NCBI GenBank assembly: GCA_026983795.1
Contig: JALSTI010000058.1
Coordinates: 10,092 to 74,091, forward strand
Origin: Melioribacteraceae bacterium
GTDB taxonomy: Bacteria > Bacteroidota > Ignavibacteria > Ignavibacteriales > Melioribacteraceae
Direction of reading: 5' to 3'
DNA length: 64,000 nucleotides
The translations under genes and the position numbers were made by a program. Under the pieces are notes generated by a model. The model was not told the DNA's origin, did no database searches, and saw only the letters and a list, made by a program, of their open reading frames with translations. Shown piece by piece: positions 2,585 to 41,130 of the stretch (position 1 is its first letter; each line of letters begins with the position of its first letter).

Positions 2585-4217
2585 TCAACGCCAGCAACCG
2601 GTTATATTCTTTCTGATTGTTCAGAATATCCACAGCGGTTATAAATTGTTTATCGTACTTTAATGATTCGGTAATTCTTCCTTTTCTTCCGTTTATTCTT
2701 GCGGCTAATTCTTTTGCAATTTCATTTAGAATTTTAGCGGAATTTCTTTTCATCTCTTCATGTTTTACTTTTTGAAATTTTTCATCCAATATTTTAAGAT
2801 CACTAATCACATTGGAATCATAATTTTTGGTTTTTACTACATCCGTTAATTCCGCCAATATTTTTTCCGCTTTTGACGTAAAGTTTAACTTTTGTTTATC
2901 TAAGTATTTAACAAATTGAGAAAATATTTTTTCCGAATGTATCCCGTTTAAATTTACGTTAGGATGCGTATTATAATAAAAAGAAGCAAACTTAAAAAAC
3001 ATTCCCCTTGCAAGTAAAAATTTAATTTGCTCGGAATCCGTTTCATCCGAAACCAAAGAATCGGGTTTTATACCGCCGTTACTATAAACAATTCTATTAT
3101 GATCGGTACTAAAAGATTTTCTTTTGTCAAGCGAACTATCAACAAAAACTTCATTATTCGAATAATCAATTTTTTGGATACATCTGCCGCTGGGAGTATA
3201 ATATTTAGCGGTTGTAATTTTAAGCGAAGTATTAAATGATAGCGGTACGACAGATTGGACAAGTCCTTTTCCAAACGAATTAGTTCCTACAATCACGCCT
3301 CTATCATGGTCTTGAATTGAACCGGCTAAAATTTCCGAAGCGCTGGCGGACCCTCCGTCGATTAACACCGCAAGCTTTGCGTTACCGGCAACCGGCACTT
3401 CTTTCGAAAAATATTTTTGAATTCTATTAGGGTCTCTTCCGATAACCGAAACAATAAGCTTGCCTTTGCCCAAAAATTTTTCGGCAACATCCACCGCCGC
3501 ATCAAGCAGTCCGCCAGGATTACCGCGCAAATCTAAAATTATAGATTTTACTTTTTTTTCTTTTTCCAAACTTTGCACCGCTTTTTTCATTTCGTAACCT
3601 GCGCTGCGTGTAAAACCGCTAAGTTTTATATAAGCATTATTAGAATTTTTAGGAACAAAACCGTAGTAACTGATATTTTTAATCTCAATTTCTTCACTCA
3701 CCAAATCAAAAATCAAATTATCGTCAACACCTTCGCGTTTTACAGTAACAACAACCTCCGAGCCGGCTGGTTTTTTAAGGTAAGTACCTAATTTATTGTA
3801 ATTATCTTTATTAATTGGAATAGAGTCAACTTTTAATATAACATCGCCTATTCTTATACCTTGGCGCTGTGCCGAATATCCTTCAATCAAATCTACTATT
3901 GTAACCTTACCGTTTTTTATGCCCACCGTTGCACCGATTCCGCCATATTTACCCGTTGTAATCAGATCAATATCCTTCTGTTGATTTTCATCGATATAAA
4001 CGGTGTAAGGGTCGAGCGAAGAAAGCATTCCTCTAATTCCGGCAATCATAAATTCTTTAGGATTGATTTCATCCACATAATTCAAGACCACTTCTTTATA
4101 AACTTTCCCGAAAATGTCTATCGATTTTGATATTTCAAAATAAATATCGCTTGTACGCGTAACAAAACCGAATAAAAATATCGTTAATAGTAATCCTGTA
4201 TATTTAACATATTTCAT
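2577..4217 (-). CDS. S41 family carboxyl-terminal processing peptidase with PDZ domain
   Basis: The 546-aa ORF has an N-terminal signal anchor and a PDZ-like segment (GGIGATVG...IGDVILKVD). The S41 core is present: RGNPGGLL, GGSASASEILAG (Ser nucleophile) and FGKGLVQ (Lys). Confidence 0.85.
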   Translation of the reverse strand: MKYVKYTGLLLTIFLFGFVTRTSDIYFEISKSIDIFGKVYKEVVLNYVDEINPKEFMIAGIRGMLSSLDPYTVYIDENQQKDIDLITTGKYGGIGATVGIKNGKVTIVDLIEGYSAQRQGIRIGDVILKVDSIPINKDNYNKLGTYLKKPAGSEVVVTVKREGVDDNLIFDLVSEEIEIKNISYYGFVPKNSNNAYIKLSGFTRSAGYEMKKAVQSLEKEKKVKSIILDLRGNPGGLLDAAVDVAEKFLGKGKLIVSVIGRDPNRIQKYFSKEVPVAGNAKLAVLIDGGSASASEILAGSIQDHDRGVIVGTNSFGKGLVQSVVPLSFNTSLKITTAKYYTPSGRCIQKIDYSNNEVFVDSSLDKRKSFSTDHNRIVYSNGGIKPDSLVSDETDSEQIKFLLARGMFFKFASFYYNTHPNVNLNGIHSEKIFSQFVKYLDKQKLNFTSKAEKILAELTDVVKTKNYDSNVISDLKILDEKFQKVKHEEMKRNSAKILNEIAKELAARINGRKGRITESLKYDKQFITAVDILNNQKEYNRLLALSE

Positions 4218-4220
4218 TTG

Positions 4221-4844
4221 TTAACTTCCTATATTTTCCAACTTATTTATTTCATTAATTATTTGTTTATGAATTTCTTCAATTGAGTTTAAACCGTTTA
4301 TTATTTTAAAGCGTTTTTCCTTCTCTGCAATTTTCAGATAGCCCATTCTAACATCTTCGTAAAATTTATTTTTCGATATTTCAATTCTATCTAGCTGTTG
4401 CTGAGTTAATTTCCGTTTTCTTTTATTCACCTCTTGCACAGGAATGTCTAGAAAAAAAGTAATATCAGGTTCCGCTCCTTTAATAGCAAAATTCTGAAGC
4501 GGAATAACAAAATCCAAGTCAATTCCCCGCCCATAACCTTGATAAGCTATAGACGAGTCGTGAAACCTGTCTGAAATAACAAAAGTTCCTTTCTCAATTG
4601 ACGGAATTATAATTTGCTTTACCAATTGTACTCTGCTTGCGGTAAACAGCAACAATTCGGTAAGGGGAATCATTTCATTATTATCGCGGTCTAATAACAA
4701 GTCTCTTATTTTTTCGGAAATTTTAGTACCGCCCGGTTCTCTTATAATTTTAACCGCTTTGTTCCGTTTAATTAAGTACTCTTTTAATAATTCTACTTGT
4801 GTGGATTTGCCGCAAAAATCCAATCCTTCGAAAGTTATAAACAT
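4221..4844 (-). CDS. tmk: Thymidylate (dTMP) kinase
   Basis: The 207-aa ORF has the P-loop FITFEGLDFCGKSTQ, the DRF motif (SDRFHDSSIAYQG) and a typical length. Confidence 0.92.
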   Translation of the reverse strand: MFITFEGLDFCGKSTQVELLKEYLIKRNKAVKIIREPGGTKISEKIRDLLLDRDNNEMIPLTELLLFTASRVQLVKQIIIPSIEKGTFVISDRFHDSSIAYQGYGRGIDLDFVIPLQNFAIKGAEPDITFFLDIPVQEVNKRKRKLTQQQLDRIEISKNKFYEDVRMGYLKIAEKEKRFKIINGLNSIEEIHKQIINEINKLENIGS

Positions 4845-4845
4845 G

Positions 4846-5757
4846 TTAATATCTTTTAATTATGTAGTCTAATCTTTTTGGTTTTATATCAACCAATTTT
4901 GTTTTAGGAGGGATTTTAACTTTAGGTTCAATTGCACCGACAGTATCCCTTAAAGCTTGCACAAAATTTACATAAGCTTTAATATCATTCTCATTTAATT
5001 TACTTAAAATTTTAATTCCGCCTCGCAAAACGACTCTAATTTTATTCGGAGTTAATACAAGTTGTTCGTTGGCAGGAACGCCAACGGTTTGAACCGGTAC
5101 ATTTTCTAACGTTTTATCCACAATTTTTTGAACATCAAGCGTAATTTTACATTTATCAACGTTATAATTGATAAAGGGAATTTTCTCTAAGTTAATTACT
5201 TCGGAAACCGAATCATCGAGTCCTTCAAAAACTCTTAATTCCGTTTTAACAAGCGAAATATTTTTTACTTTACTTTTAGGTCCGATAACCACAATGGAAT
5301 CCGGTTCCACTTTTATATTGGAAACCAATCCATAACCGGGTTTAAAATTAAATGTTACAATGGGAATTACTTCTACCTTTTTACTTCTGACTTGTTCAAT
5401 TGTAAAGCTGACCGTTTGAGGCGAAGTTTCTACAATTTGAAGCGTTGAAGAAATCCAAGGATTATTTTCAAGTTCATTACGAATAGAAACGGTTTGATGT
5501 TTTCTTTTTCCTTTGCAATAAATATAAAATTTGGGATTTCGTCCAACTGTATGTTGTGCAAGCTGCCAGCCTTGTCCTTTAATACCCAATGAAACCGTAG
5601 TTGCCGAATAGGAACTAAGCGCATATCCTTCGGGAATGTTTTTAAATTCAATAGGTAATCTTAAATTGATTGTATAATCACCCGAGAACGAAACATATAC
5701 CCAAAGCAGTGTGGAAAAGATAACGATCAGTATTATTGGAATAATTTTCTTTTTCAT
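4846..5757 (-). CDS. YbbR/CdaR-like domain protein (membrane-anchored)
   Basis: The 303-aa ORF has an N-terminal TM helix (IIPIILIVIFSTLLWVYV) followed by repeated beta-rich modules, as in YbbR-domain proteins. No diadenylate cyclase gene is adjacent. The assignment rests on overall pattern only. Confidence 0.55.
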   Translation of the reverse strand: MKKKIIPIILIVIFSTLLWVYVSFSGDYTINLRLPIEFKNIPEGYALSSYSATTVSLGIKGQGWQLAQHTVGRNPKFYIYCKGKRKHQTVSIRNELENNPWISSTLQIVETSPQTVSFTIEQVRSKKVEVIPIVTFNFKPGYGLVSNIKVEPDSIVVIGPKSKVKNISLVKTELRVFEGLDDSVSEVINLEKIPFINYNVDKCKITLDVQKIVDKTLENVPVQTVGVPANEQLVLTPNKIRVVLRGGIKILSKLNENDIKAYVNFVQALRDTVGAIEPKVKIPPKTKLVDIKPKRLDYIIKRY

Positions 5758-5770
5758 ATCTTTTAAATAT

Positions 5771-5796
5771 AAAAAAACTCCACGAGTAGTGGAGTT
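5771..5796 (-). terminator. Rho-independent terminator downstream of the BMC shell gene pair
   Basis: The minus strand reads AACTCCAC-TACTC-GTGGAGTT followed by TTTTTATATTT. That is an 8-bp stem, a 5-nt loop and a T-run, starting 27 nt after the stop at 5823. Confidence 0.8.
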
Positions 5797-5822
5797 CTAA
5801 AATACATTTTGACAAGTAATTT

Positions 5823-6425
5823 TTACCTCATACTTTTAAAGAATTCCAGCAATTGAGATCTGTTAGCTTTAGAAATTTGCCGACCGAAAATTGGGAAATT
5901 CTCAGTTGCCCTGGCTAAACGTCTTAATTGATGAACATTCATCTTTGCTAACTCAGCATCGGATGGAATTCCGGAAGATTCAGAAGTTTCCGTTTCTCTT
6001 TCGCCGGTCGATTCTTCGCTTTCGTCAATTTTTTTACTTTCTTCTTGTATGGATTCAACATGTTTCAGTTGTTCGGAAACTGCGGGTTTACCGGAAATTT
6101 CACTTTTCTTTTTTACTTGAGGTTTCTGCGCCTTGTCTTTTACTGTTTGTGCAACTTTATCAATTACTATTTGATCAATTTGATCGTCCGGTCTTGGTAT
6201 TACATGCGCGGAAACCAATTCTCCTACTCTTTGAGCGGCTGCGGTTCCGGCATCAACAGCGGCTTTTACTGCAGCCACCTCGCCAACAACTTTAACCAGC
6301 ATTAATGCTCCCGTAACCTTTTCCTTGCCAATTAATTGCACTTCTGCAGCTTTTGTCATTGCGTCGGCAGCTTCTATTGCTCCAACCAATCCTTTGGTCT
6401 CTATAAGACCTAGCGCTAAGTTCAT
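5823..6425 (-). CDS. BMC-H (Pfam PF00936-type) microcompartment shell protein with a ~115-aa non-BMC C-terminal extension
   Basis: Residues 1-85 ([37 protein letters not shown]...ELVSAHVIPRP) form a canonical single BMC domain with the D-x-x-x-K edge motif. The remainder is a Lys-rich segment, then an acidic S/E/T-rich linker, then a helical tail (AELAKMNVHQLRRLARATENFPIFGRQISKANRSQLLEFF). Confidence 0.85.
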   Translation of the reverse strand: MNLALGLIETKGLVGAIEAADAMTKAAEVQLIGKEKVTGALMLVKVVGEVAAVKAAVDAGTAAAQRVGELVSAHVIPRPDDQIDQIVIDKVAQTVKDKAQKPQVKKKSEISGKPAVSEQLKHVESIQEESKKIDESEESTGERETETSESSGIPSDAELAKMNVHQLRRLARATENFPIFGRQISKANRSQLLEFFKSMR

Positions 6426-6440
6426 AATAATAGACTAAAA

Positions 6441-6722
6441 TTATTTGCTTCTTTTAGGTAAAATTAATTCCACATCCGAATGAGGTCTTGGAATTACATG
6501 AACCGAAACCAATTCACCGACACGCTGTGCTGCGGCTGCACCGGCATCTGTAGCAGCTTTAACAGCGCCAACATCACCGCGAACCATAACGGTAACATAA
6601 CCGCCGCCAATTGTTTCTTTACCAATTAACTCAACTTTTGCAGCTTTAACCATAGCATCAGCCGCTTCAATTGAACCAACCAAACCTTTGGTTTCAATCA
6701 TTCCTAATGCGTCAAGTGTCAT
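6441..6722 (-). CDS. BMC-H (Pfam PF00936-type) microcompartment shell protein
   Basis: [80 protein letters not shown] is a textbook BMC hexamer domain. The track ORF starts at a TTG at 6734. I prefer the ATG at 6722 because GGGAG lies 5 nt upstream of it. Confidence 0.88.
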
Positions 6723-6755
6723 ATGTGCTCCCAAATTTGGTTTAAATACTTTGTG

Positions 6756-6784
6756 AAAATAGCTTATAAAGATAAAAATGTCAA
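6756..6784 (-). promoter_or_regulatory. Candidate sigma70-type promoter for the BMC shell gene pair
   Basis: The minus strand reads TTGACA, a 17-nt spacer (tttttatctttataagc), then TATTTT. The element ends 33 nt upstream of the ATG at 6722. This is a pattern match only, and the promoter consensus of this lineage is unknown to me. Confidence 0.4.
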
Positions 6785-6802
6785 ATTATAAATTCATTAG
6801 TT

Positions 6803-7231
6803 TTAGTTTTGTTCATTTAAAAAGTCTTCTAAAATTACCGCTGCGGCATATTTATCGATTAATTCTTTATTTTTTCTTTTCTTCTTTGATTTAACCGATT
6901 CTAAAATTTTTTCTTTTGCAATCGCCGAGGAATATCTTTCATCGAATAAAATTACCGGAATATTGGTTTTACTTTCAAATTTCAGCTTAAATTTATCCAC
7001 TAGCTGGGTACTCGTAGATTTTTCCCCGTTTTCTTTAAGCGGGTAACCAAGTATAATTTTTTCAATTTCGTACTCTTCAATTATTTTTAATATCGATTTA
7101 ATTAAATTATTATCGTTTTTTAAAGTAACCAAGGGATACGAAAATATTCCAAGCGGATCGGAAATTGCTATTCCAACCCGTACATGTCCATAATCAATAG
7201 CTAAAATTCTTTTTTTCGGTTTCAGAGTCAT
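6803..7231 (-). CDS. ruvX: Holliday junction resolvase-like / pre-16S rRNA nuclease RuvX (YqgF)
   Basis: YqgF signature ILAIDYGHVRVGIAISD is present, along with ...ILFDERYSSAIAKE. I place the start at the internal ATG 7231 (MTLKPKK...). The longer track ORF (to 7297) would overlap rel by 62 nt. Confidence 0.85.
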   Translation of the reverse strand: MTLKPKKRILAIDYGHVRVGIAISDPLGIFSYPLVTLKNDNNLIKSILKIIEEYEIEKIILGYPLKENGEKSTSTQLVDKFKLKFESKTNIPVILFDERYSSAIAKEKILESVKSKKKRKNKELIDKYAAAVILEDFLNEQN

Positions 7232-7235
7232 TTGA

Positions 7236-9407
7236 TTAATTTGCAGATTCAAATCTTCTTGCGCTAAATATTCCTTTATTTTTGCGCAAACGTTCAAGGA
7301 GTCTATTTAAATGCTCCAAATCTTCCACATAAACGGTTATTTGCCCTTCAAATTGTGAATCGTAAGTATTAATATTAACCGACTTGATATTAGTATCTTT
7401 GAATGTAGTAATGCTATTAGAAATATCCTTTAAAATTCCCGGTTTATCTTCGCCCAAAATAGTAATACCTGCAACAAACAATTTACCGTTGGTATGCGGC
7501 CAATCAACAGGGACCAATCTATCTTCGTTTTTTTCGGCCATTTGAATTAAGTTGGAGCAATTCTTTCTGTGAATTTTAATTCCTTCTCCAATTGTCACAT
7601 ATCCAACAATGGGATCACCGGGAATTGGGTTACAACATTTGGCAAAACTGTAGGAAATTCCTTTGTGCTCCCCTTCTACCAATACACCGCCAGAACCGTC
7701 GCGGGCAATTTTAATAAAATTATCGAATTTCAGTTCGTTTGTTTGGGTTGGTTCGGCAGGCGCAGGAGGATTAAGAATCGATTCCAAATCAACTTTATCT
7801 TGAGCAATAGCCGAATAAAAAGCCGATGTATTTTCGAACTTAAGTTTTCTAATTAATTTTTGAATATCATCTTGATTAAAAGTAAGTTTCAATTTTTTAA
7901 TTTTTTTCTGCCAAATTTGTTTTCCGGCTTCAACAATTCTATCTTCTTCGCGTTTAAGGTATTTTCTGATGTTAGATTTTGCTTTATGTGTTTGAACAAA
8001 CTGTAGCCAGCTTTTATTAGGATGTTGATTTTTAGATGTAATAATTTCAACCCTGTCACCGCTATGCAAAATTGTATTAAGAGGAACAATCTTTCCGTTC
8101 ACTTTAGCGCCGATGCAATGAAAACCAACTCTGCTATGAATTTCGAAAGCAAAATCAACGGGTGTGGAATTTATAGGAAGTCTTTTTAAATCGCCTTTAG
8201 GAGTAAACACATAAATTTCATCTTGATATAAATTAAGTTTAAAACTTGCAATTATTTCTTTTGTTGCTTCGTCTTTTGAAGCTGTTTCAAAAATATCCCT
8301 AATCCAATTGACCCATTCTTCTAAATCTTTATCGCTTGTAACCAAATTTTCTTTGTATTTCCAATGTGCCGCAACACCGCGTTCAGCTATTTCGTGCATT
8401 TTACGTGTTCGTATTTGAATCTCCACCATCCTGCCGTCGGGTCCGATTACCGTATTATGAATTGATTGGTAATTATTCTTTTTGGGAATAGAAATAAAAT
8501 CTTTAAACCTATCAGGAATAGGAGTAAACAATTGATTGATAATACCCAAAACATAAAAACACTCATTATTATCATCATTTTCCAAAATTATTCTAATTGC
8601 AAGTAAATCGTAAATATCTTCCAGAGGCTTATTTTGCTTTATCATTTTTCTGTAAATGCTGTAAAAATGTTTCGGTCGACCACTAATTTCAAATTTCAGA
8701 TCATGTTCTTTCAATCTTTCTGCAATGGGCTGTGTAATTTTTTTAATATACTTTTCGCGTTCTTCCCGTGTTTCGTTTAATTTTTTTGCAATTTGGCTAT
8801 ATGCTTCGGGATTCAAAAATTTGAACGCAAGGTCTTCCATTTCCCATTTTATTCGCGCAAGACCGAACCTGTGGGCAAACGGAGCATAAATTTCAAGCGT
8901 TTCTTTAGCAATTCTTCTTTGCTTATGCGGAGGGACAAATTCCAATGTACGCATATTGTGTAACCGATCAGCAAATTTAACCAATATTACCCTTACATCT
9001 TTAATCATTGACAAAAGCATCTTTCTATAATTTTCAGCTTGAGTAATATTTTGCCCTCTAAATACACCGCCTATTTTTGTAACACCGTCAACAATTTCGG
9101 CCACTTCTTTTCCGAATTCTTGAACAATAAAATCCAAACTGATATCGGTATCTTCCACAACATCGTGCAGCAAAGCACTAACGACCGAAATATCATCCAA
9201 AGGCATTTCTTCGGCAACTATTTTGGCAACTTGAACGGGATGAACAAAATATGGTTCCCCCGAAGCCCGGAAATCGTTCTTGTGTGCTCCGTAGCTTAGT
9301 TGAAAGGCTTTGGTTATTAGGTCTTCATCAACACTAACCAAATTTTTTCTGCACGACTCTAATAACTGCTCTAACAATTGGTTATATTTCGGGTTAAGTA
9401 TTTCCAT
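7236..9407 (-). CDS. rel: Bifunctional (p)ppGpp synthetase/hydrolase, RelA/SpoT family
   Basis: The 723-aa ORF has the HD hydrolase motif (FVHPVQVAKI...LLHDVVEDT) and the synthetase core (YQSIHNTVIGPDGRMVEIQIRT). A TGS domain (IYVFTPKGDLKRLP) and a C-terminal ACT-like domain follow. Confidence 0.93.
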   Translation of the reverse strand: MEILNPKYNQLLEQLLESCRKNLVSVDEDLITKAFQLSYGAHKNDFRASGEPYFVHPVQVAKIVAEEMPLDDISVVSALLHDVVEDTDISLDFIVQEFGKEVAEIVDGVTKIGGVFRGQNITQAENYRKMLLSMIKDVRVILVKFADRLHNMRTLEFVPPHKQRRIAKETLEIYAPFAHRFGLARIKWEMEDLAFKFLNPEAYSQIAKKLNETREEREKYIKKITQPIAERLKEHDLKFEISGRPKHFYSIYRKMIKQNKPLEDIYDLLAIRIILENDDNNECFYVLGIINQLFTPIPDRFKDFISIPKKNNYQSIHNTVIGPDGRMVEIQIRTRKMHEIAERGVAAHWKYKENLVTSDKDLEEWVNWIRDIFETASKDEATKEIIASFKLNLYQDEIYVFTPKGDLKRLPINSTPVDFAFEIHSRVGFHCIGAKVNGKIVPLNTILHSGDRVEIITSKNQHPNKSWLQFVQTHKAKSNIRKYLKREEDRIVEAGKQIWQKKIKKLKLTFNQDDIQKLIRKLKFENTSAFYSAIAQDKVDLESILNPPAPAEPTQTNELKFDNFIKIARDGSGGVLVEGEHKGISYSFAKCCNPIPGDPIVGYVTIGEGIKIHRKNCSNLIQMAEKNEDRLVPVDWPHTNGKLFVAGITILGEDKPGILKDISNSITTFKDTNIKSVNINTYDSQFEGQITVYVEDLEHLNRLLERLRKNKGIFSARRFESAN

Positions 9408-9442
9408 TCCAATAAGTAATTAAACTAATATTTATTATAGTA

Positions 9443-10531
9443 CTATTTAGTTTCAGAAGCAAGAACTTCAAGAATCTCCTCTTTAAGTTTTTTAACTCTC
9501 ACAATTCTTTCTTCAACCTTTTTCAAATTGTAGTCACTTATTTTATTAATACTCAGAATTTGGTTGATTAGTTCCAATGCGTCGGAATAATGTTTTTCAT
9601 CGAATAATAGCATTGCAATTTTATGTTTTAGAATAACCGAGTTAACAGGAAACAGTTTTCCTTCTTTTTTTAACGAAGTTAATATTTTACTATAAATTTT
9701 AACGGCTTTTTGTTTATCAATACCCTCGTATGCTCTTGCAAGTCCCCACATAAAAAATCTGCTGTTTGGATATTTTTTAAGAGCATTCAAACTTAATTTA
9801 ACCGCTTCGCCGTATTTTTTTTGATCGATATAAATCCAAAGCAGCGAATTTACGGCTAAATATTTATTATACGTAAAATGATTAACCGTGCTCCGCAGCA
9901 ATTTAATTCCTTCTTTTCTATTATCTTTAACAAACGGCAACCAGCTTATAGCTTTAAGTTTGGCGCTTTTCCAATATTTGTAAATTCCTATTGCCAAATA
10001 TACTTCATAAAAATTCGAATCTATTTTTGCACATCTTTTATAATATTGAAGCGATTGAAACCCTTCTTTGAAAGCTGATAAATAATTTTGTTTCAATACC
10101 TCAAAGTATGCGCTGTAAGCAAAAGTAAGAGCCAAAAAGTAGTTATTCCAAATATTTGATTCGTTTGAATCTAATAACCTTTCACTTAAATCCATAGCCT
10201 TGTTTAAATAATTATCGATATAATTTACTTTAAGTGAGTCTTGATAATCTGCTGTTTTTGCAATGCTTACAGCTGCCAAATAAATTTTACCAAAAGGCAG
10301 CAAAGGGTAATTTTCGTCCAATTTGTTAAATATTCTATTTGCATCCGAATAATGCTGAGTAATTATGAAATCAATACCTTTTATAATTAAGGAATCAACT
10401 TTAGGATTAGGAAAGTGCTGCGCAAATAGTATACTGTTTGTTAAAATAAGAAAGGTTAATATTTGCTTATAATGTACCAAAGGTTCTGTCTCCCGCATCT
10501 CCCAAACCAGGAAGAATATATCCGTTTTCAT
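9443..10531 (-). CDS. Secreted TPR-like repeat protein, function unknown
   Basis: The 362-aa ORF has a signal-like segment (ILTFLILTNSILFAQ) and helical repeats with TPR character. The start is uncertain: ATG 10531, ATG 10498 and TTG 10480 all overlap the 3' end of upp. Confidence 0.5.
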   Translation of the reverse strand: MKTDIFFLVWEMRETEPLVHYKQILTFLILTNSILFAQHFPNPKVDSLIIKGIDFIITQHYSDANRIFNKLDENYPLLPFGKIYLAAVSIAKTADYQDSLKVNYIDNYLNKAMDLSERLLDSNESNIWNNYFLALTFAYSAYFEVLKQNYLSAFKEGFQSLQYYKRCAKIDSNFYEVYLAIGIYKYWKSAKLKAISWLPFVKDNRKEGIKLLRSTVNHFTYNKYLAVNSLLWIYIDQKKYGEAVKLSLNALKKYPNSRFFMWGLARAYEGIDKQKAVKIYSKILTSLKKEGKLFPVNSVILKHKIAMLLFDEKHYSDALELINQILSINKISDYNLKKVEERIVRVKKLKEEILEVLASETK

Positions 10532-17896: not shown

Positions 17897-20878
17897 TTAT
17901 TTAACGACTGCTATTTTAATAATCTTGTAATCGGATTTATTTAATCCTTTGGCTTCCACCCGCGCCAAATAAGCACCGCTTTGGATATTAGACACATCCC
18001 AAGCTATTTCGTTTTCGAATCCTCCGGTTGCGTTGAATTTTAATTCGTCTATAAAATCACCGGCTAAATCGAAAATTTTTATATCTATCAAAGCGTCTTC
18101 CGAAACGTATGTTCTTATAAAAGTTTGGTTTCCATAAACCGGATTGGGCCAATTATAAGTTCTGTTCTTCGGAAAGAATTCTTTTGTAATATTAACTGTT
18201 TGATGATTATCGACAAATGAGTTGTTAAATCCGTTTCCATACTCCGTTCCTGACACAATTTTTAAAGGGTAATCCAATTCCCAGTTAATCAAATAATTTT
18301 CATCGGTTAAAACGCTTAAAATACCTTTGCCAGAAGAGGATTTTGAAATTCCGGCGGATGTTATTTTAGAGCCGGCAGAAAGCGGAAACGGATAGATATT
18401 TTGCGCCGTTTGCGATGATACAAGATTTATTTGTCCGTCTCCGGAAAAATTTATCAACTCGGTTTTCCCGTCGCTGTCAATATCAATTCCTAACGGTGTT
18501 CCACTAAAACTATTTTCGTTAATTAATTTTACGGGAAAATTTAAAGCTGAACTGCCAACCAAATTATAAGCCATAATTTTATCTCTTCCGTTAAAGACGA
18601 TATAATTTTCACCGTCATTAAAAAGGTTTGCCAACGTAAATGTATTAACGGAATCATGAATAACAAACCGGTTTATAACTTTACCTTTTTTAATTACACT
18701 AAACTTCTTCCCGCCGGAAAGCACAACGGCGATATACTCGTTATTTTTGTTTTTACTTAAAATAATTTTATCTATTTTCTCTTGAAACTCAGTTTGTAAA
18801 TTTTCCGAAGTATTTAATATAAAATCCGAGGCACCAATAAAATAAGTTCCGTCAATTGCAATATGTTTAACCGGTTTTCCGGAAATAAAATCATTTGTTT
18901 GTAAAAGTGAAACCGAATTGGAATTCAAATTATATGAATACTTATTTAACTTTCCCGTTTCACTGCCGGCATAAAAAGTTAAACTGTCCGCCGATTCCGA
19001 AATTATAACCGGAATGCCCGAAAGATTTTCGGCTGTTAAAAAATTTGTTGTTAGGACGGCGGTGTCTGAAAACGAAACCACATTTATTTTCTTACCGGTA
19101 AATCCTACTAATACATCATTGCTTTGCAAATTTGCAATTGCAGGTGTAACATTGCTGAAACTATCTATACTTGCAGTTTTTTGCAAGGCTTTGTTAAACA
19201 TCATTAAATTTAAATTATCAAGAATAAAGGTATTGCCATTGGAATTATATAAATATGATTTACTTGTTTTAGGTTGACCGGATAAATCCAGTTTACCTGA
19301 ATTCATCAAATTAATATTTGACGACCCGAAACTTAAGGAGAAAGACATTTTATTTGAAATATCCGAAAATCCGGTAAGATTAACCAAACTGTTGGACCCG
19401 TTATGTGCTTTGGAACTAGGCTTGGAATTAGGAGTAAGAGCATTTTCATAAAACTCAGACGGATTGGATGCATACCAAAAATCTTCTTGCGTACCTTCAC
19501 CTTCCGAAACATCACCAAGAAAATTGGTAAACTTTTCGCCAATATCGTTTATACCGTCGGCTTCAACAACCTCAACGCCTCTGTGGTCCGGATCGGCATT
19601 AATTTTATTAAGCGATAATTTTTCTTTTATCACGTTGTTATCTATGTGCCAAATAACAATTCCGCTTCCCGGCAAAGCCCAATCATATTCATCAACATCT
19701 ACAACTACACCGCTGATTGCATCGACGTTAAAATATATAAAATCATCTTCGTCTTTCGAAAATGATTTTGTTAAGGTTTCCCCGTTAACTTTATACGTAA
19801 TATTTGCTCCGTTTTTATTTACGTCGCGGTTTCTATTTTCAATTAAAAAATACTCATCCGAATTAATAGGGACTTTTATTACGGTTGTATCCTGGAAAGA
19901 AGCGCTTAATCTTGTAGCAATATCAATTAAATTTTGGTTAGATTTAACAACTACAGGAGTTTCCCAACCCAAGAAAATTTTTTCCCATGCAGAAGGTTCG
20001 GGTGGGAACAATCCTCCGAAGGCAAAAATAGCCTGACCGTCCATTAATCCAAAACGACTGATAGCGCTTGACCCGTCTGATGTATTGAACAAATCCGGCA
20101 ATCCCAAATAACTGCCGATGCTGGAAACTATTAATCCGTTAATTGTTAGTTGAAACAGTACAGTTCCGCCGATGCCCGAAATTTCTCTGGATTCGGTTTC
20201 GGGAAGTATCAGACTGTTTTTAATAAAATAATTTCCGGAATTTACGGGAAAGCCCTTAAAGTTTTGTCCGTAAAGATTTTTCAACAAACTATTACTTAAA
20301 AAGATGGAAGGTAAATCTTTTTCGCTTCCGGTGGAACCAGGAGTAATAACATCACCGCCGGTACCTGCATGAAAAATCACAAACAAATCATAATTACTGA
20401 AATTAACTCCGTTAAAAATGGAATCTGCTTTTTGCCATACTTCCTTTGAAAAATCGGCAAGATTTAAGAAATTTTCATCCTTAGGAGGGAAATAGTCCCT
20501 CATTACTTTATCAACCGTAATAACTTTAGGATAAACATCAAAACTTAATTCAACATTTCCGCCGGAGACCTTATGATAATAATTTTTTGCAAATTCCAAA
20601 TGTTCCTTAAAATAACCGGCATTGTGCGGTAAAGGGTCTAAAATAGTAGTGCCGTAATCTTTTGAATATAAAGTTCCGAACTTGCCGGTACCTGCAGTCA
20701 AATCAAAATCGTCCGGTTGGAATTCCACCATAACTGCAAAAATCCTCACCGTATCGGTTGAATTGGCAGTTAAATTTTTAATGGAATTGGAGGGCATAAG
20801 TTTAGGAATAAAAGATTGGGCAGATAAACTGCCCAAACTAAAAATCAGCAAAAAGAGGATTAATTTTTTCATTTTCAA
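17897..20878 (-). CDS. T9SS-secreted M6 (immune inhibitor A)-like protein with a degenerate zinc site
   Basis: The 993-aa ORF has a signal peptide and M6-like landmarks (VIFHAGTGGD, LGLPDLF, GLMDG, PSAWEKIFLGW, GIVIWHID, VEVVEADG). SSIGS replaces HExxH. A type-A T9SS CTD lies at the end (NWPNPVYGNQTFIRTY...YLARVEAKG...KIAVVK). The start is TTG 20878 or ATG 20872. Confidence 0.7.
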   Translation of the reverse strand: MKMKKLILFLLIFSLGSLSAQSFIPKLMPSNSIKNLTANSTDTVRIFAVMVEFQPDDFDLTAGTGKFGTLYSKDYGTTILDPLPHNAGYFKEHLEFAKNYYHKVSGGNVELSFDVYPKVITVDKVMRDYFPPKDENFLNLADFSKEVWQKADSIFNGVNFSNYDLFVIFHAGTGGDVITPGSTGSEKDLPSIFLSNSLLKNLYGQNFKGFPVNSGNYFIKNSLILPETESREISGIGGTVLFQLTINGLIVSSIGSYLGLPDLFNTSDGSSAISRFGLMDGQAIFAFGGLFPPEPSAWEKIFLGWETPVVVKSNQNLIDIATRLSASFQDTTVIKVPINSDEYFLIENRNRDVNKNGANITYKVNGETLTKSFSKDEDDFIYFNVDAISGVVVDVDEYDWALPGSGIVIWHIDNNVIKEKLSLNKINADPDHRGVEVVEADGINDIGEKFTNFLGDVSEGEGTQEDFWYASNPSEFYENALTPNSKPSSKAHNGSNSLVNLTGFSDISNKMSFSLSFGSSNINLMNSGKLDLSGQPKTSKSYLYNSNGNTFILDNLNLMMFNKALQKTASIDSFSNVTPAIANLQSNDVLVGFTGKKINVVSFSDTAVLTTNFLTAENLSGIPVIISESADSLTFYAGSETGKLNKYSYNLNSNSVSLLQTNDFISGKPVKHIAIDGTYFIGASDFILNTSENLQTEFQEKIDKIILSKNKNNEYIAVVLSGGKKFSVIKKGKVINRFVIHDSVNTFTLANLFNDGENYIVFNGRDKIMAYNLVGSSALNFPVKLINENSFSGTPLGIDIDSDGKTELINFSGDGQINLVSSQTAQNIYPFPLSAGSKITSAGISKSSSGKGILSVLTDENYLINWELDYPLKIVSGTEYGNGFNNSFVDNHQTVNITKEFFPKNRTYNWPNPVYGNQTFIRTYVSEDALIDIKIFDLAGDFIDELKFNATGGFENEIAWDVSNIQSGAYLARVEAKGLNKSDYKIIKIAVVK

Positions 20879-22081
20879 CTAAATTCCTCTGGGAAATCCA
20901 TGATGTTTTTTAACGGGGTTGTTTCCCCAGCCAATAAGGATTGTAAATCTCATTGTGTCAGACAATGGATGATTTTCACCGTTCTTAAAAACATCCGTTG
21001 TTATATAACTAAAATCGAATCCGTATAAATCGTATCTAATTCCCGCACCGAGGGTTACAAATTTTCTGTTTCCGAAAGAAGGATCTTCGTAAAAGAATCC
21101 GGTTCGTACGGCAAATTTAAAATCATCGCCGCCATACCAGTATTCCAATCCCATTGACGTTACTACATCACGTATCTCTTCATTAAACGAATTATCAAAC
21201 CAGGAAGTAAAAATAGCTTTGTAAAATTTATCTCTATGACCTGCGCTATCGGCTTTACCAACCAATAATTTACTAAAATCTATTGTGTAAGTAAGAGAAT
21301 TAAAATCATCTTCAAAAAGTCTAAACGCAAATCCCAATCTGAAATTGGTAGGAATCGGGTCGGCTTGCGCTTGATCGATGTAATAAATAGCCGGACCGAT
21401 ATTACTTAAATTAGCGCCAATACTAAGACGATTACTAAAATCGCCGATTAAAGGAAGCGTTAATTTTGCCGGTCTCCACATTGCTGCAATATCAAAACTA
21501 ACCGATGTAGCCACGCCCGATCCTTGTTCTCCGGCTGTTGGCTTGTCGGATAGTCTGCTATGTATTAATCTGAAATTCAATCCCAGACCCCAATCCTCGC
21601 TAAGCTTGGTTGCATAACCGAGAGTTAAAGCAGCGTCAAAAGATCTAAAAGTACCAATTGGTTCTGGACTATCTTCACCGGTACGTATAAATTCACCGAA
21701 GTTCATATAGGTTATACTCGCAGAAATGCTACCGTCCAAATCTTCAATATATTGGCGGTAAGTAAGATAGTCGTAAAAAAGATCGTTTAACCCGAATTGC
21801 GGCAACCAATTACTGTGCGTAATACTTACTTCGGAGCCGTCCAGAAATGCCAGACCAGCAGGGTTCCAAAATATTGCAGCTGAATTATCTGCAAGTCCCC
21901 CGCCCGATTCTCCAATACCGCCCGATCGTGAATCCGGCGCTAATAGCAAAAATGGCACGGCTGCTTCGCCTTGAGCATTTATCTTTATCTGGGTACTCAG
22001 CATCATCGTTAATATCAGCATAAGAAAGCCAAAACGTTTCATTGTTATTCCTCCATTTATATGGTTATTTTTATTTCTCAT
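20879..22081 (-). CDS. porV: Type IX secretion system outer-membrane channel/shuttle protein PorV (LptO)
   Basis: The 400-aa ORF has the PorV N-terminal signature AAVPFLLLAPDSRSGGIGESGGGLADNSAAIFWNPAGLAFL and a beta-barrel character. It lies immediately downstream of porU. Confidence 0.85.
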   Translation of the reverse strand: MRNKNNHINGGITMKRFGFLMLILTMMLSTQIKINAQGEAAVPFLLLAPDSRSGGIGESGGGLADNSAAIFWNPAGLAFLDGSEVSITHSNWLPQFGLNDLFYDYLTYRQYIEDLDGSISASITYMNFGEFIRTGEDSPEPIGTFRSFDAALTLGYATKLSEDWGLGLNFRLIHSRLSDKPTAGEQGSGVATSVSFDIAAMWRPAKLTLPLIGDFSNRLSIGANLSNIGPAIYYIDQAQADPIPTNFRLGFAFRLFEDDFNSLTYTIDFSKLLVGKADSAGHRDKFYKAIFTSWFDNSFNEEIRDVVTSMGLEYWYGGDDFKFAVRTGFFYEDPSFGNRKFVTLGAGIRYDLYGFDFSYITTDVFKNGENHPLSDTMRFTILIGWGNNPVKKHHGFPRGI

Positions 22082-22099
22082 TATTATAAAAATTTAATT

Positions 22100-25000
22100 T
22101 TACCTAATTACAGCTAATTTTCCAAGAACATTTTTACTGTAACTGCCGTCAACGGAATTAACGATTAATTTATACAAATAGGTTCCGTTGGAAATCATCG
22201 TTCCGTCCTCATCCTTACCATCCCAATTTATTTTAACAAACCGGTCCGTAACGTTAAATTTGCTTATTATTTTTATCAATCTTCCGCTAATTGTATAAAC
22301 TTTTATTTCAACATTTAACGGTTTATCAAGATTTTGTTGAAATGTAAAATAAGTATTAGTTTTAAACGGATTAGGATAATTGAAAACATCTTTAATCACT
22401 AAATCGTTGGAATTAACAACAGTAAAACGACTTTCGGAAATTGATACATTGTTAAATACATCCCAAGCTTTAATTTTAATTTTGTAATCTCCGGGGTCCA
22501 TTCCCGTAAATTTATAATTTATTACTCCGGATTTACCGAACGAATCTACATCGCCGATAAAAAAATTAGTCAAATCAATCGGGTTTTCATCATCATCATT
22601 TATTATGGCTTCAAGCTTATGACCAACACCCAGACCGGTTGTGTTAATTCCGGTTTCATCTTGTATTTTAACCAACAGCGTAAAATCGGGATTCACCAAA
22701 TACGAATCGGCATTATTGAAATTGTCATAATAAATCTTAATATCCGGACCTTTTCCGTCGTTCGAAATAGTAGAATCGGTTCCGCCGACAATTATATTTT
22801 TAGTAAACCCAACGCCATCGGTGTTATCGTTGTAAACATACGATACTATTTTACCGTTTTTATTTCCGTACGATATATCTTTTGGAACCACGAATCCGGT
22901 AGAAAATTTTCCGTTGTTTACTTTTGTTCTTCCTCTAAAAATCACGCCTCCGTGAACAACCATATTGTAATTTATATCTTTCAAATAAATTTGTTTATCC
23001 GAATCAAATACGGTTATAATAGATTCGCCGTTAAAATCATTTGGTGTTCCGTCAAGATTTTTAACCTCTCCGGTAATTACAACGTTTCCCAATGCTTTTA
23101 TTTGAATATTAGTAGTGATGCTTGTATGATTAACAGAATCGATATCTGCAGGTAACACGGGCTGATTTAATCTTAATGCAGGGTCGCAGAACAAATGAAA
23201 TTTTTCATCGTTTTCGCCGGTTCTGTTTTGTTTCATTTGATAAAACGCCGTTCCAATCGGATAAGGTAAGCCTTGCGAATCTTTTGGTCCGAGAAGTTTT
23301 CTATAAAACACACCATTCAGAGCGGCATTTTCTTGCGAATATACAGGTCGAACAGCGCTTAAAGCTCCTATCATACCATAATTATTCAGGACTAACATTT
23401 CCTCAACGCCGCTTTGGTTTTCGGGGTCGTCAAATTTCCCGAAATCGCACGTAGCTGCGGTTAAAAAAAAGTAATCTTTATTTCTCAATTGGGGAATCGA
23501 AGTCTCGCGAACAAACACCTGCTCGTGCGCCCAAAGTTCCGGACTTCCGTGACCGATATAGTTTAATATTAAAGTTCCGTTATTAATTGCATTTATTATT
23601 GCTTTATTAACTTCCGGCTTTCTTCTTCCCAAACCGGTTATAACAGTAGGATAATTAGAAAGATAAATTTTATTCTGATCAAAAAACGGAGGAATATTGT
23701 TTTTAGATAATCTTTCGGATTGGTCGGTATGCAACGAGCCGTCGTCTCGCTTAGACGTTAAACCATCGTCGGCAACTAAAGTTATTGTATTTCTCCAAAG
23801 TCCTTTTTCAGAATTTTTTTCGTAAAAAATTATCTTGTTAACAACGCTTTCTGCTTCTTCAAGCGATGAAACCGGCAATCTTCCAATAGCAATATCGGCA
23901 GAGTTATCATCTCCTATTAAACGCGAATAATAATCATCCATGGCATAAGATATTATCTCATTCATCGATTGTAAAGTTTGAAAAGTAGGTACAAAATTTT
24001 TATTCTTACCCAGCAAGTTGTAATAATCGAAATCTCCGTCGCCAAAGAACAAAACAAATTGCGGTTTTACTTGCCAATTATTTAGCGCATCTTGCAAAAA
24101 ATTTCTTATTGCGGTTGGGTCTAACATTCCGGAAGAATATTCGTTAAAAATTTCATCAACATAAACTACAACCGAAGATAATTTGTGAGGAGCTTCATTC
24201 TGTCTGTATTCTTTCAAACGTTCGGCTTGATCTTTAAATTTTTCGTTAGTCACAATTATGTATTTTGCGCCGGGATCTATACCGTGAATATTGGAGTTTT
24301 TCATTTTTTTAAAATTCTCGGGCTTTTTAAATTTTGATGTTTCAACTGCATAATATTTTGATATTTTCCCGCTTTGTTCGTTAACTTGAAAAGTAATTTG
24401 CGGACCGTTAACGGTTAAGCCGGAAATTAATTTAACATTAGAATAATCGGAAACGTCAAATACTTGTACATTGCTGCTTGGGAACCCGCTTAATTTGTAT
24501 TGTGTGTTCCCGCCAACCGGATTTGAAAAGAATAATAAATTTCCCGCCACTGCATACAAAGACGAATAATATTCAATTTCATAAAAATCCAAATATCCTT
24601 TTGCAGAACTTGAAGTGGGATTGAAAGTAAATTTTAAAACACTTCTGTCATCCGGCAAAGCGCCTGAATATGAAGCATGGGCAAACAATATTTTGCCTAT
24701 TGTATAATCGGGTTGAACCCGCGGTCCCGATACGTTTTGCGAACTAATAAGTTTTCCGTTTTCGTAAAGACTAATATTACTTATTTTTTTGGAAGCGTTA
24801 ATAAATTGGTAAGAAACTTTTAAGAGAGAATCCGCAACATAATTTTTCACTTCGTTTACATAAGACCTTGACTTGGAAGAAAGAGAAAATTCATCACCAA
24901 CGTCAATTAAACCGGATCTTATTAAATTCCGTTTATCTTCATCTAAAAATTTAAATGCTTTGGTAATGGTCTGTATTTTAGGATTCGGGTCATTGTTAGA

Positions 25001-26068
25001 TGTTTTAAGCTGCATTCTTTTCCCGGGGTTTCCGCCGGAGGTTATCCAATAATAATTAGCTTTGGAGTACCAATTTTTATTCCTAACTATTTTACTTTTT
25101 GAGGAATTAAAAAACCAAAAGTCAACGCCTCGTCCGTAAAAAAGGATGTAATCATCAGCATCAAATTTTCCGTCTTCTTCTCCCCGGATGTAAATTGCAT
25201 TTTCCACTAAACCATCAGGCCGCTGTGCGGTAACTTTCCAGGGCAAAATGTATCCGCCGTTATTATAAATTTTAATGGTTCGCGGGTCTACGGTTTCGGG
25301 ATCAATTCCAAGTTTGGGCAGCATATCCCTTGTAATTTTATAAATTCCTTCTTCGGGTGCTTCGAACGTATACCAAGTACCGTTAGCTAAAACCGAATTT
25401 ATTCCCCCTTTTTGCAATGTGCTTTTTTTAGTTCCCCAATTTCTTGCCACGTTATAGTTAATAATAACATTCTTAAGTAAATCGTCATTTATTAAACTCC
25501 GGTTGTTTGCAGTGTTACCGAAATTAACTCTAAAAATTATTTTAGTAAAAACTTTAATTGTATTATCGTTAGGTAAAAACCGGATGGGATGAATTAATAT
25601 CTTTTGCACTTTAAGTTCTCTTACCAAACCGAAATCACCGAATGTGACCAAGTCGGGATTTGTAAAATTACTGTAATCGTTGCCGGGTTCATAATTTTCA
25701 ACGGCAAGTCCGTTTTCTTTTATTAAATCTGGTTTAGGAAGCAGCTTACCTTTCAAGGTTTTAAATTCGGAGCCGATTATTTGGATTGTATTTCCGAATT
25801 CACCCGGCACACCAACATTAACAACAGAAACAAGAATTCCGGGTTCACCTATTTTTACCGAAGGATCCGTTTGGGCGTTATCAATGCTAATACGAATAAA
25901 TTTACCGGAAGTAAGTTTTACGACCGAACTTTGAATATTTACAGGAGAATATTGCAGAACAACTGACGAGCTGCTGGAAGAAATGATTTTTATATTTCCG
26001 CCGGCAAAGACAGCCGAATACAAAAAAAGGGAAATAATCAATATAGATATTCTGCTTTTTACGTACAT
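22100..26068 (-). CDS. porU: Type IX secretion system sortase PorU (C25 gingipain-like peptidase)
   Basis: The 1322-aa ORF has C25 catalytic-region motifs NYIGHGSPELWAHE (His) and FLTAATCDFGKFD (Cys). Its C-terminus resembles a T9SS CTD (FNYPNPFKTNTYFTF...). The classic porU-porV adjacency is present. Confidence 0.85.
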   Translation of the reverse strand: MYVKSRISILIISLFLYSAVFAGGNIKIISSSSSSVVLQYSPVNIQSSVVKLTSGKFIRISIDNAQTDPSVKIGEPGILVSVVNVGVPGEFGNTIQIIGSEFKTLKGKLLPKPDLIKENGLAVENYEPGNDYSNFTNPDLVTFGDFGLVRELKVQKILIHPIRFLPNDNTIKVFTKIIFRVNFGNTANNRSLINDDLLKNVIINYNVARNWGTKKSTLQKGGINSVLANGTWYTFEAPEEGIYKITRDMLPKLGIDPETVDPRTIKIYNNGGYILPWKVTAQRPDGLVENAIYIRGEEDGKFDADDYILFYGRGVDFWFFNSSKSKIVRNKNWYSKANYYWITSGGNPGKRMQLKTSNNDPNPKIQTITKAFKFLDEDKRNLIRSGLIDVGDEFSLSSKSRSYVNEVKNYVADSLLKVSYQFINASKKISNISLYENGKLISSQNVSGPRVQPDYTIGKILFAHASYSGALPDDRSVLKFTFNPTSSSAKGYLDFYEIEYYSSLYAVAGNLLFFSNPVGGNTQYKLSGFPSSNVQVFDVSDYSNVKLISGLTVNGPQITFQVNEQSGKISKYYAVETSKFKKPENFKKMKNSNIHGIDPGAKYIIVTNEKFKDQAERLKEYRQNEAPHKLSSVVVYVDEIFNEYSSGMLDPTAIRNFLQDALNNWQVKPQFVLFFGDGDFDYYNLLGKNKNFVPTFQTLQSMNEIISYAMDDYYSRLIGDDNSADIAIGRLPVSSLEEAESVVNKIIFYEKNSEKGLWRNTITLVADDGLTSKRDDGSLHTDQSERLSKNNIPPFFDQNKIYLSNYPTVITGLGRRKPEVNKAIINAINNGTLILNYIGHGSPELWAHEQVFVRETSIPQLRNKDYFFLTAATCDFGKFDDPENQSGVEEMLVLNNYGMIGALSAVRPVYSQENAALNGVFYRKLLGPKDSQGLPYPIGTAFYQMKQNRTGENDEKFHLFCDPALRLNQPVLPADIDSVNHTSITTNIQIKALGNVVITGEVKNLDGTPNDFNGESIITVFDSDKQIYLKDINYNMVVHGGVIFRGRTKVNNGKFSTGFVVPKDISYGNKNGKIVSYVYNDNTDGVGFTKNIIVGGTDSTISNDGKGPDIKIYYDNFNNADSYLVNPDFTLLVKIQDETGINTTGLGVGHKLEAIINDDDENPIDLTNFFIGDVDSFGKSGVINYKFTGMDPGDYKIKIKAWDVFNNVSISESRFTVVNSNDLVIKDVFNYPNPFKTNTYFTFQQNLDKPLNVEIKVYTISGRLIKIISKFNVTDRFVKINWDGKDEDGTMISNGTYLYKLIVNSVDGSYSKNVLGKLAVIR

Positions 26069-40008: not shown

Positions 40009-40500
40009 TTATTTTCTGTTTTTCATTAAACGTTTTCTTCTGTTTAAAAAGAAATCTCTTATCTCTTTCCTGAACTTAAATTCAAATACAACAAGCTTGG
40101 CAATTTGCTTTGGACTAAGAATATCGGTAAGACTATTAATAAAGTTTACTTTATTGTCGACCAATTTTTTGTCTAATAGGTTAATCTTTCTTACCATTTT
40201 TTTATAATAATTATCACTTTGTTTTTCTCCCGTTTCAAAATTGTTTAACAATTCCAACAATAAACTATCCTTTTTGTCGGCTAATTGCTTTTGTTCGTCC
40301 AGATGCTTTTTTCTTCTGGTAAAAAATCTAACAGACGTATTTTCATCAAGGTTTAAGGTTTCCAACAATTTAATTTTTTCCAATTCCATAAACCGTTCCA
40401 TTCCCCTTTTACCGTGCATAAATTGCCGCGGCATTTGTTGGGCATTTAGTAATCCTATTGTCAAAAGAAAAAACGGGAAAGCAAATAATTTAATTTTCAT
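40009..40500 (-). CDS. Periplasmic helical protein, possibly Spy/CpxP-like (last gene of the ECF sigma operon)
   Basis: The 163-aa ORF has a signal peptide and a highly charged helical sequence with LT/NxxQ-like segments (LNLDENTSVRF, LSPKQIAKL). The family call is tentative. Confidence 0.45.
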   Translation of the reverse strand: MKIKLFAFPFFLLTIGLLNAQQMPRQFMHGKRGMERFMELEKIKLLETLNLDENTSVRFFTRRKKHLDEQKQLADKKDSLLLELLNNFETGEKQSDNYYKKMVRKINLLDKKLVDNKVNFINSLTDILSPKQIAKLVVFEFKFRKEIRDFFLNRRKRLMKNRK

Positions 40501-40503
40501 TTT

Positions 40504-41130
40504 TTACCTTAATATTTTTGTTGAACTAATTGATTTGTACATCGATTTAAATTCATCCTCGCTCAGTTTATCCATAATTTGAAATAAGTCGGTATTATCT
40601 AAATTGATTGCGGAAGCTTGCAGATTTATATCGTTTATCGATGATATTTGATCAGTATATAGTTGTGTTAATAAATTCTTTGTCTTAAAATCATTTTCCA
40701 AATCGTAGGTAAGTAATTTGCCGGCAAGAGATTCATTGAGCGTACTATCCGGGTAAAGCATAGTTTCAATTTCGTTAACCGTAATAAAGTTTACTTTATT
40801 ATCTTGTTTATTAAACTTATTAATTAATAAAATTGAAGTAATTAATATTGCTAAAATTAAAGTTATAGCATAGGCGGTTTGGGGTTTTAGTTTACTTTTC
40901 GAAGGTTCTTCCAACCGGTTTCTGACTTTGGGGATTAAATTTATAAAGTAAGATTCATCAAAAATATTTTCGTTTTCTAATTCGAGACATTTTAATTTTC
41001 CGGTAATTTTTTCATATTCTTTTCTTAAATTTTCCGATTTTTCAATTTCATTTAAAAATTGTTCGCTTTCAGTCTTGTTCATTAGACCGGATAAATATTT
41101 CAATATTTTATCTTTATTTTTCATCATCAA
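40504..41130 (-). CDS. Putative anti-sigma factor (single-pass membrane protein)
   Basis: The 208-aa ORF overlaps the sigma gene by 17 nt. It has a cytoplasmic N-terminal helical part and one TM helix (AYAITLILAILITSILLI). The call rests on position and topology only. Confidence 0.5.
   Translation of the reverse strand: MMMKNKDKILKYLSGLMNKTESEQFLNEIEKSENLRKEYEKITGKLKCLELENENIFDESYFINLIPKVRNRLEEPSKSKLKPQTAYAITLILAILITSILLINKFNKQDNKVNFITVNEIETMLYPDSTLNESLAGKLLTYDLENDFKTKNLLTQLYTDQISSINDINLQASAINLDNTDLFQIMDKLSEDEFKSMYKSISSTKILR

Follow-up and report, generated by a model that had tools for sequence, protein, structure and literature searches.

Two adjacent genes for shell proteins of bacterial microcompartments (BMCs), here called H1 and H2, lie in a 64,000-nucleotide stretch of the genome of a Melioribacteraceae bacterium (contig JALSTI010000058.1, positions 10,092 to 74,091; the whole stretch is referred to as the window). 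They form a compact tandem unit on the minus strand at 5764-6784 of the window, and both code for proteins of the hexamer-forming class, BMC-H. H1 (6441-6722, minus strand) has 93 amino acids, counted from an ATG at 6722, and matches PF00936 with an E-value of 3.5e-30 and a score of 104.2 bits. H2 (5823-6425, minus strand) has 200 amino acids and matches the same family over residues 4-79 (E 4.5e-26, 91.1 bits); the Pfam gathering cut-off is 24.5. These are the only BMC domains in the window, whose annotation comprised Pfam searches of essentially all open reading frames (ORFs) of at least 80 amino acids.

H1 is a canonical BMC-H protein in its motifs: the edge, through which hexamers tile, carries K25 of the D21-x-x-x-K25 signature and PRPH, a form of the standard (P/A)RPH motif, and the pore loop reads GGGY, with GGG at the pore. 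It shares about 80% identity with the solved EutM of C. difficile (4axj) and is also close to PduA and to the BMC-H of Haliangium ochraceum (HO). To judge by its sequence, H1 is a near-canonical EutM/PduA-like hexamer protein. The identical sequence is deposited at NCBI as MBM4175420.1, from a metagenome-assembled genome (MAG) of an Ignavibacteria bacterium. The cluster that holds H1 at 90% identity has 1459 members, including EutM of Lacrimispora saccharolytica and of Clostridium tetani as well as proteins from WOR-3 and Acidiferrales MAGs, which points either to extreme conservation or to a transfer between phyla.

Transcription unit and genomic setting

An earlier reading of the window, made from its letters alone (the sequence-only reading), had described two tandem BMC-H genes that look like their own transcription unit between rel-ruvX and ybbR-tmk. 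Each part of this description was borne out, beginning with the genes themselves: PF00936 matches both, the H2 model adopts the BMC fold, and the N-termini, the D-x-x-x-K edge motif and the two pore loops (GGGY in H1, TGAL in H2) had all been given correctly.

The putative promoter of the pair is a sigma-70-like element, TTGACA-17 nt-TATTTT, at 6756..6784 on the minus strand (10/12 matches), and it is the best promoter-like site anywhere within 4000-10000. In 56 of 64 independent related loci, the same motif stands 61-67 nt 5' of the H1 start codon. Between it and the start codon, a ribosome-binding site, GGGAG, can be read at 6728..6732 (minus strand), and its pattern, GG[GA]AG at 4-12 nt before the ATG, recurs in 52 of the 64. 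In 66 of 68 related loci, H1 and H2 are spaced by -1 to 16 nt. Downstream of H2, a terminator scan located an intrinsic terminator at 5764..5798 (minus strand), composed of a 10-bp stem, a 5-nt loop and a T-run (hairpin with T-run at 5798-5774); in 50 of the 68 loci, H2 is followed by a T-run behind a hairpin with a folding energy of -6 kcal/mol or below. Because promoter, ribosome-binding site and terminator are conserved across loci, beyond a mere match to consensus, H1-H2 can be regarded as a self-contained unit, and it is a predicted autonomous two-gene operon with its own promoter, a strong ribosome-binding site and an intrinsic terminator.

The terminator stem is itself conserved in sequence. 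It often reads ACTCCAC/GTGGAGT, with the paired variants CCCCAC/GTGGGG and GGCTTT/AAAGCC, and it is near-identical across species whose H2 proteins share just ~55-60% identity, which exceeds the needs of a plain terminator.

Pfam confirms rel and ruvX on one side of the pair and ybbR and tmk on the other. Relatives of the pair were collected in two ways. Hundreds of relatives share 50-64% identity with full-length H2, and those that carry a name are Ignavibacteria, Melioribacteraceae or Melioribacter roseus. A scan with the C-terminal domain of H2, at one genome per species, matched 142 species genomes; locus comparisons use the best 80 of these 142, which are almost all MAGs of Melioribacteraceae or Ignavibacteriaceae. 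As far as the flanks are present, the gene order upp-TPR-rel-ruvX-H1-H2-ybbR-tmk-S41 protease-tauE is kept in all 80 loci except L023, L071 and L074, and rel-ruvX-H1-H2-ybbR is also found in M. roseus. The synteny that the sequence-only reading had proposed to examine is therefore conserved, and the pair is, by this gene order, fixed in a housekeeping block across Melioribacteraceae and Ignavibacteriaceae.

The other parts of a BMC locus were sought throughout the window. Pfam found no PF03319 pentamer (BMC-P), no BMC-T or tandem BMC protein, and no aldehyde dehydrogenase, PduL, glycyl-radical enzyme, RuBisCO or carbonic anhydrase in the 64 kb. A local BMC-P hidden Markov model (HMM), built of five BMC-P sequences from Protein Data Bank (PDB) alignments and of PduN, matched none of the window's six-frame ORFs of at least 40 amino acids when run unfiltered. 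These results agree with the absence of pentamer, BMC-T and signature enzymes reported earlier for this stretch.

Architecture of H2

The sequence-only reading had called both proteins single-domain. This stands insofar as each has one BMC domain, but in H2 a long linker and a folded C-terminal domain had been overlooked. The BMC domain of H2 (6171..6425, minus strand; residues 1-85) is modelled by AlphaFold2 (AF2) with pLDDT of at least 90. It has the D21-x-x-x-K25 signature, of which K25 is invariant across the H2 family, a PRPD edge and a TGAL pore loop with TGA at the pore. Compared by Foldseek with EutM, PduA, CutN and the HO BMC-H, the model gives target TM-scores of 0.8-0.9 and E-values down to 2e-11. 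Together with the likeness of H1 to 4axj, this establishes that both proteins have the BMC fold; had they lacked it, the earlier interpretation would have failed.

The linker (5976..6170, minus strand; residues 86-150, ~65 residues) is polar, net acidic and predicted to be disordered past a helix at residues 80-99. In the AF2 model of full-length H2, its residues 100-150 have pLDDT below 40-50 and residues 151-200 fold confidently. Across the H2 family the linker varies from 58 to 105 amino acids, with a median isoelectric point (pI) of 4.9 and 72% polar residues. Many family members carry a second short motif within it, approximately (N)DTI[AES]RL[RK]xEALG, which a strict pattern finds in 74 of 252 of them; the window has a degenerate version, SEQLKHVESIQEE, at 6012-6050 (residues 126-138). 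The motif may be a binding helix.

The C-terminal domain (5826..5975, minus strand; residues 151-200) is small and basic and consists of four short helices. Its family consensus, IPPxxELxxLNVHxLRxLARxFxNFPIKGRxISKANRxxLLDYF, includes 17 invariant columns; the median pI is 9.8, with conserved Arg, Lys, Asn and His residues. Modelled by itself, the domain reaches a pLDDT of 90.4. No Pfam family matches it at E-values up to 1, and a profile search of PDB sequences gave chance matches to fumarase only. Foldseek against the PDB found nothing significant, the best compact match being Rho (TM 0.60, E 3). Against predicted viral structures, the named matches among the first 30 include seven Rho-N proteins and one SAP domain protein, the best of which reach TM 0.72-0.74, with a probability of 0.98 for the top one, but E of ~0.2, and hhalign detected no similarity between the domain and residues 1-51 of E. 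coli Rho. A HeH-type (Rho-N/SAP-like) fold is a tentative reading of the structural matches.

A described counterpart of this architecture is EutK, which likewise joins a BMC-H domain through a flexible linker to a small helical domain of unknown role, in EutK one that resembles nucleic-acid-binding domains (PF16365). The two differ in that H2 has no PF16365 match, its tail seeming nearer in fold to Rho-N/SAP than to a winged helix, and in that the EutK gene lies within a complete eut operon. An identity of the H2 tail with that of EutK was considered and rejected, given the missing PF16365 match and an hhalign probability of 0.3% against the EutK tail.

In all of the 608 representative clusters that contain it, the domain is C-terminal. 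Of the top 149, 113 carry a BMC domain at the N-terminus and almost all others look like fragments, which indicates that the domain is specific to the fusion with BMC and is not shared with enzymes.

Relationship to the FRAG1 microcompartments

Scattered shell genes have been catalogued by Sutter et al. (2021, Nat Commun, PMC8217296) as FRAG BMCs, in which shell genes occupy up to six places in the genome and are accompanied by a BMC-P triplet. FRAG BMCs are mostly far from enzymes, and encapsulation-peptide matches are absent from FRAG genomes (PMC8217296). FRAG1, with 57 loci, is a type of shell proteins only, found chiefly in Ignavibacteria; 24 of its loci have a PduS/T pair, and its BMC-P triplet, of the green, grey and orange clades, lies elsewhere in the genome (PMC8217296). 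The trees of the same study include an extended BMC-H type, H_teal2c, and an Ignavibacteria FRAG1 pentamer, A0A1G0P9C1, of type P_viridian3_mixed-spu (PMC8217296). In M. roseus, seven BMC-P genes are distributed over five loci (Axen et al. 2014). We found no paper on FRAG1 or on Ignavibacteria microcompartments later than 2021.

The window presents the shell pair as published, an Ignavibacteria host, and shell genes unaccompanied by BMC enzymes. H1-H2 is thus probably the BMC-H pair of a FRAG1-type fragmented BMC in an Ignavibacteria bacterium. Since the FRAG1 description fits the pair, the window offers a further instance of a catalogued type and adds no new kind of system. In the pair itself, its host, the lack of adjacent enzymes and the dispersal of shell genes there is no difference in kind from FRAG1; for the pentamers and the PduS/T pair the comparison covers only the 64 kb of the window. 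The novelty implied by the sequence-only reading for a pair of hexamer genes standing alone is consequently unsupported, because exactly this gene pair, extension included, is already listed as FRAG1 (Sutter et al. 2021, PMC8217296). What had seemed a puzzle, the lack of a nearby pentamer and of cargo, is also how the literature describes FRAG1.

Several points weigh against the assignment. It was made by published description and tree labels, not by the shell HMMs of the catalog. Run unfiltered, the local BMC-P HMM found no pentamer in the window, nor in ~2.4 Mb from related loci, namely the sequence within 10 kb of the pair in the 80 genomes and around the aldolase gene described below in 80 metagenome contigs. 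A protein-database search with the H. ochraceum BMC-P gave, among the matches listed, only myxobacterial-type sequences: the 120 listed are 73-100% identical to the query, and those named belong to Haliangium, Kofleriaceae, Myxococcota or 'Proteobacteria'. Pentamers for the present genome rest on the literature for its relatives, with none in the readable DNA, which extends to at most 10 kb from the anchor genes. To our knowledge, shells have never been seen in these organisms, and neither a cargo nor an encapsulation peptide is known. The orientation and the partner proposed below for the H2 tail are likewise inferred.

A different use of the proteins would involve no pentamers: H1 and H2 would assemble into sheets, into tubes or into a scaffold that serves Ignavibacteriota as a constitutive structural element, its lattice tethered through the H2 tail to DNA, to RNA or to some other structure of the cell. 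In favour of this, the operon is autonomous, seems to be constitutive and lies in a housekeeping block; no pentamers or enzymes adjoin the pair in the 80 genome loci or in 16 long metagenome contigs that carry it, and the tail, with its basic character and conserved Arg, Lys, Asn and His residues, bears a weak likeness to Rho-N and SAP folds. However, the likeness in fold falls short of significance (E ~0.2 or higher), sequence comparison gives no link to Rho-N, the BMC-P triplet co-occurs with the pair in FRAG1 genomes (PMC8217296), and M. roseus has its seven BMC-P genes. We regard this use as quite improbable. Thus, of the two alternatives left by the sequence-only reading, a distant piece of a BMC agrees with published FRAG1, and a role outside compartments found no positive support.

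A distant piece might also be an ordinary satellite, supplementing a complete metabolosome locus elsewhere in the genome. M. roseus has such a locus, MIC4, with its own BMC-H and BMC-P besides its FRAG1 parts (PMC8217296, Supplementary Data 2), and satellite pairs of BMC-H genes are well known. Of the three features that mark a satellite locus for Axen et al. (2014), the pair shows the first two, and the third concerns the whole genome. CcmK3/CcmK4 of the beta-carboxysome resemble H1-H2 as a two-gene BMC-H unit, separately transcribed and away from other shell genes, but for the carboxysome a main locus is defined and the cargo is known, and CcmK3 and CcmK4 both lack an extra domain on a tether. 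The distribution of the pair argues the other way: it is found in at least 142 species genomes, whereas MIC4 is known from 15 catalogued loci across several phyla; the catalog keeps FRAG1 as a separate type with its own pentamer triplet; and the pattern of conservation is that of a core gene set, not of an accessory. A satellite role is therefore very unlikely.

The BMC of H. ochraceum offers a further comparison. H1 and the BMC domain of H2 are ~60% identical to its BMC-H, its pentamer triplet is divided among loci, and no function is known for this BMC. It differs in its main locus, which encodes an aldehyde dehydrogenase and BMC-T proteins but only one BMC-H.

For the FRAG1 assignment we propose the following working model. 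H1 hexamers would tile the facets of the shell, and H2, whose T-G-A pore and PRPD edge differ from those of H1, would co-assemble as a minor, specialised hexamer. Six flexible tethers, each with a small, basic, helical domain at its tip, would then extend from every H2 hexamer. In solved shells, such as that of H. ochraceum, the termini of BMC-H proteins are on the concave, cytosol-facing side; by analogy, the C-terminal domain of H2 most probably projects from the outer face of the shell and would there bind a partner in the cytosol, maybe a nucleic acid or a positioning factor. The BMC-P triplet, with the PduS/PduT pair in some genomes, would be encoded elsewhere, as reported for relatives, and would close the shell.

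FRAG-type BMCs are an acknowledged open problem, being widespread shells with no known cargo, targeting peptides or operon logic. Workers on FRAG1 may find three things of use here: a pair that is fixed in place and separately transcribed, a tail of H2 that is specific to the fusion, and a nearby extended aldolase as candidate cargo.

A candidate cargo and further observations

The aldolase is encoded on the same strand as the pair and 7-9.5 kb downstream of it in M. roseus and other relatives. It belongs to PF01791 (287-290 amino acids), and its placement downstream of the pair recurs in 16 of 35 long metagenome contigs. Since residues 67-285 span the whole of the 224-residue solved enzyme 6d33, residues 1-66 are an extra, N-terminal extension. 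This extension, with the consensus M.SS.IDKVVSQVFIEKAL.DFYC.G.TC.GWERNVVDQP.AVKNII.NGA.RIAAG, opens with a helix resembling BMC targeting peptides, and it is conserved in the extended aldolase genes at L022:18707-19573, L085:10001-10870, L087:10001-10864 and L088:10001-10870.

PF01791 is the signature enzyme of SPU-type BMCs, most copies of which carry N-terminal targeting peptides. The FRAG1 assignment could be refined to a dispersed, SPU-like organelle, whose shell would enclose the downstream deoxyribose-phosphate aldolase, with the 66-residue extension as targeting signal, and would retain the acetaldehyde that is freed from deoxyribose 5-phosphate. Residues 1-11/14 have an amphipathicity similar to that of the targeting peptides of PduP and EutE and resemble that of EutE, and the FRAG1 pentamer type bears the label 'mixed-spu'. 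Several observations speak against this refinement. The extension equals the catalytic domain in conservation (82% against 87% column identity), which is not the pattern of a helix with a loose linker behind it, and its conserved Cys pair and GWERN motif suggest a folded domain. Encapsulation-peptide matches are, as noted, absent from FRAG genomes (PMC8217296), neither an aldehyde dehydrogenase nor a phosphotransacylase was seen near the pair or the aldolase of relatives, and the linkage of pair and aldolase may merely reflect the general synteny of the block. Altogether we consider an SPU-like organelle unlikely.

The extension has no Pfam match. A metagenome scan with it alone returned close relatives only, at 57-75% identity and with no pentamers nearby, and because only close relatives matched, the scan is uninformative on SPU loci in other phyla. 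No PF02502 was seen near the extended aldolase of relatives. In the window itself, Pfam found none of PF01791, PF02502 and aldehyde dehydrogenase, so it does not present an SPU-type locus. For the genome of the window, the expected position of the aldolase is ~7 kb beyond position 1, and the contig data end ~2 kb before it; a Logan contig runs 4.6 kb beyond window position 1 and covers htpG, mgtC, an RNase T/GIY-YIG gene and a partial ymdB.

A more far-reaching picture combines the aldolase with the H2 tail. The FRAG1 pair would belong to a constitutive, lineage-wide core organelle of Ignavibacteriota, with the extended aldolase, whose gene lies in the same conserved block, as cargo and HeH-like H2 tails anchoring its shells to nucleic acid or to a positioning system. 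This picture, which we hold to be improbable, would if true describe something other than an inducible catabolic accessory.

An unusual arrangement of BMC domains was seen in eight metagenome proteins of 289-298 amino acids (P0033, P0034, P0037, P0059, P0079, P0087, P0101 and P0102), which have three BMC domains per chain; one such protein is labelled as coming from the soil metagenome bin BH09SUM1. A chain of this kind would dimerise into a pseudohexamer, and we know of no described shell class with this composition.

The remainder of the window consists of housekeeping and envelope genes, among them htpG, tauE, the S41 protease gene, tmk, ybbR, ruvX, rel, upp, der and metG. It also codes for parts of a type IX secretion system, ExbB/ExbD/TonB, an extracytoplasmic function (ECF) sigma factor and pterin synthesis proteins. 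The type IX secretion cluster (17897-26068) comprises a 993-residue protein with a Por secretion tail (17897-20878), a PorV homologue (20879-22081) and a C25 (gingipain-like) peptidase of 1322 amino acids (22100-26068). The ECF sigma factor gene (41114-41662) is followed, within the region 40009-41662, by two ORFs of 208 and 163 amino acids that have no Pfam match and are possibly an anti-sigma pair.

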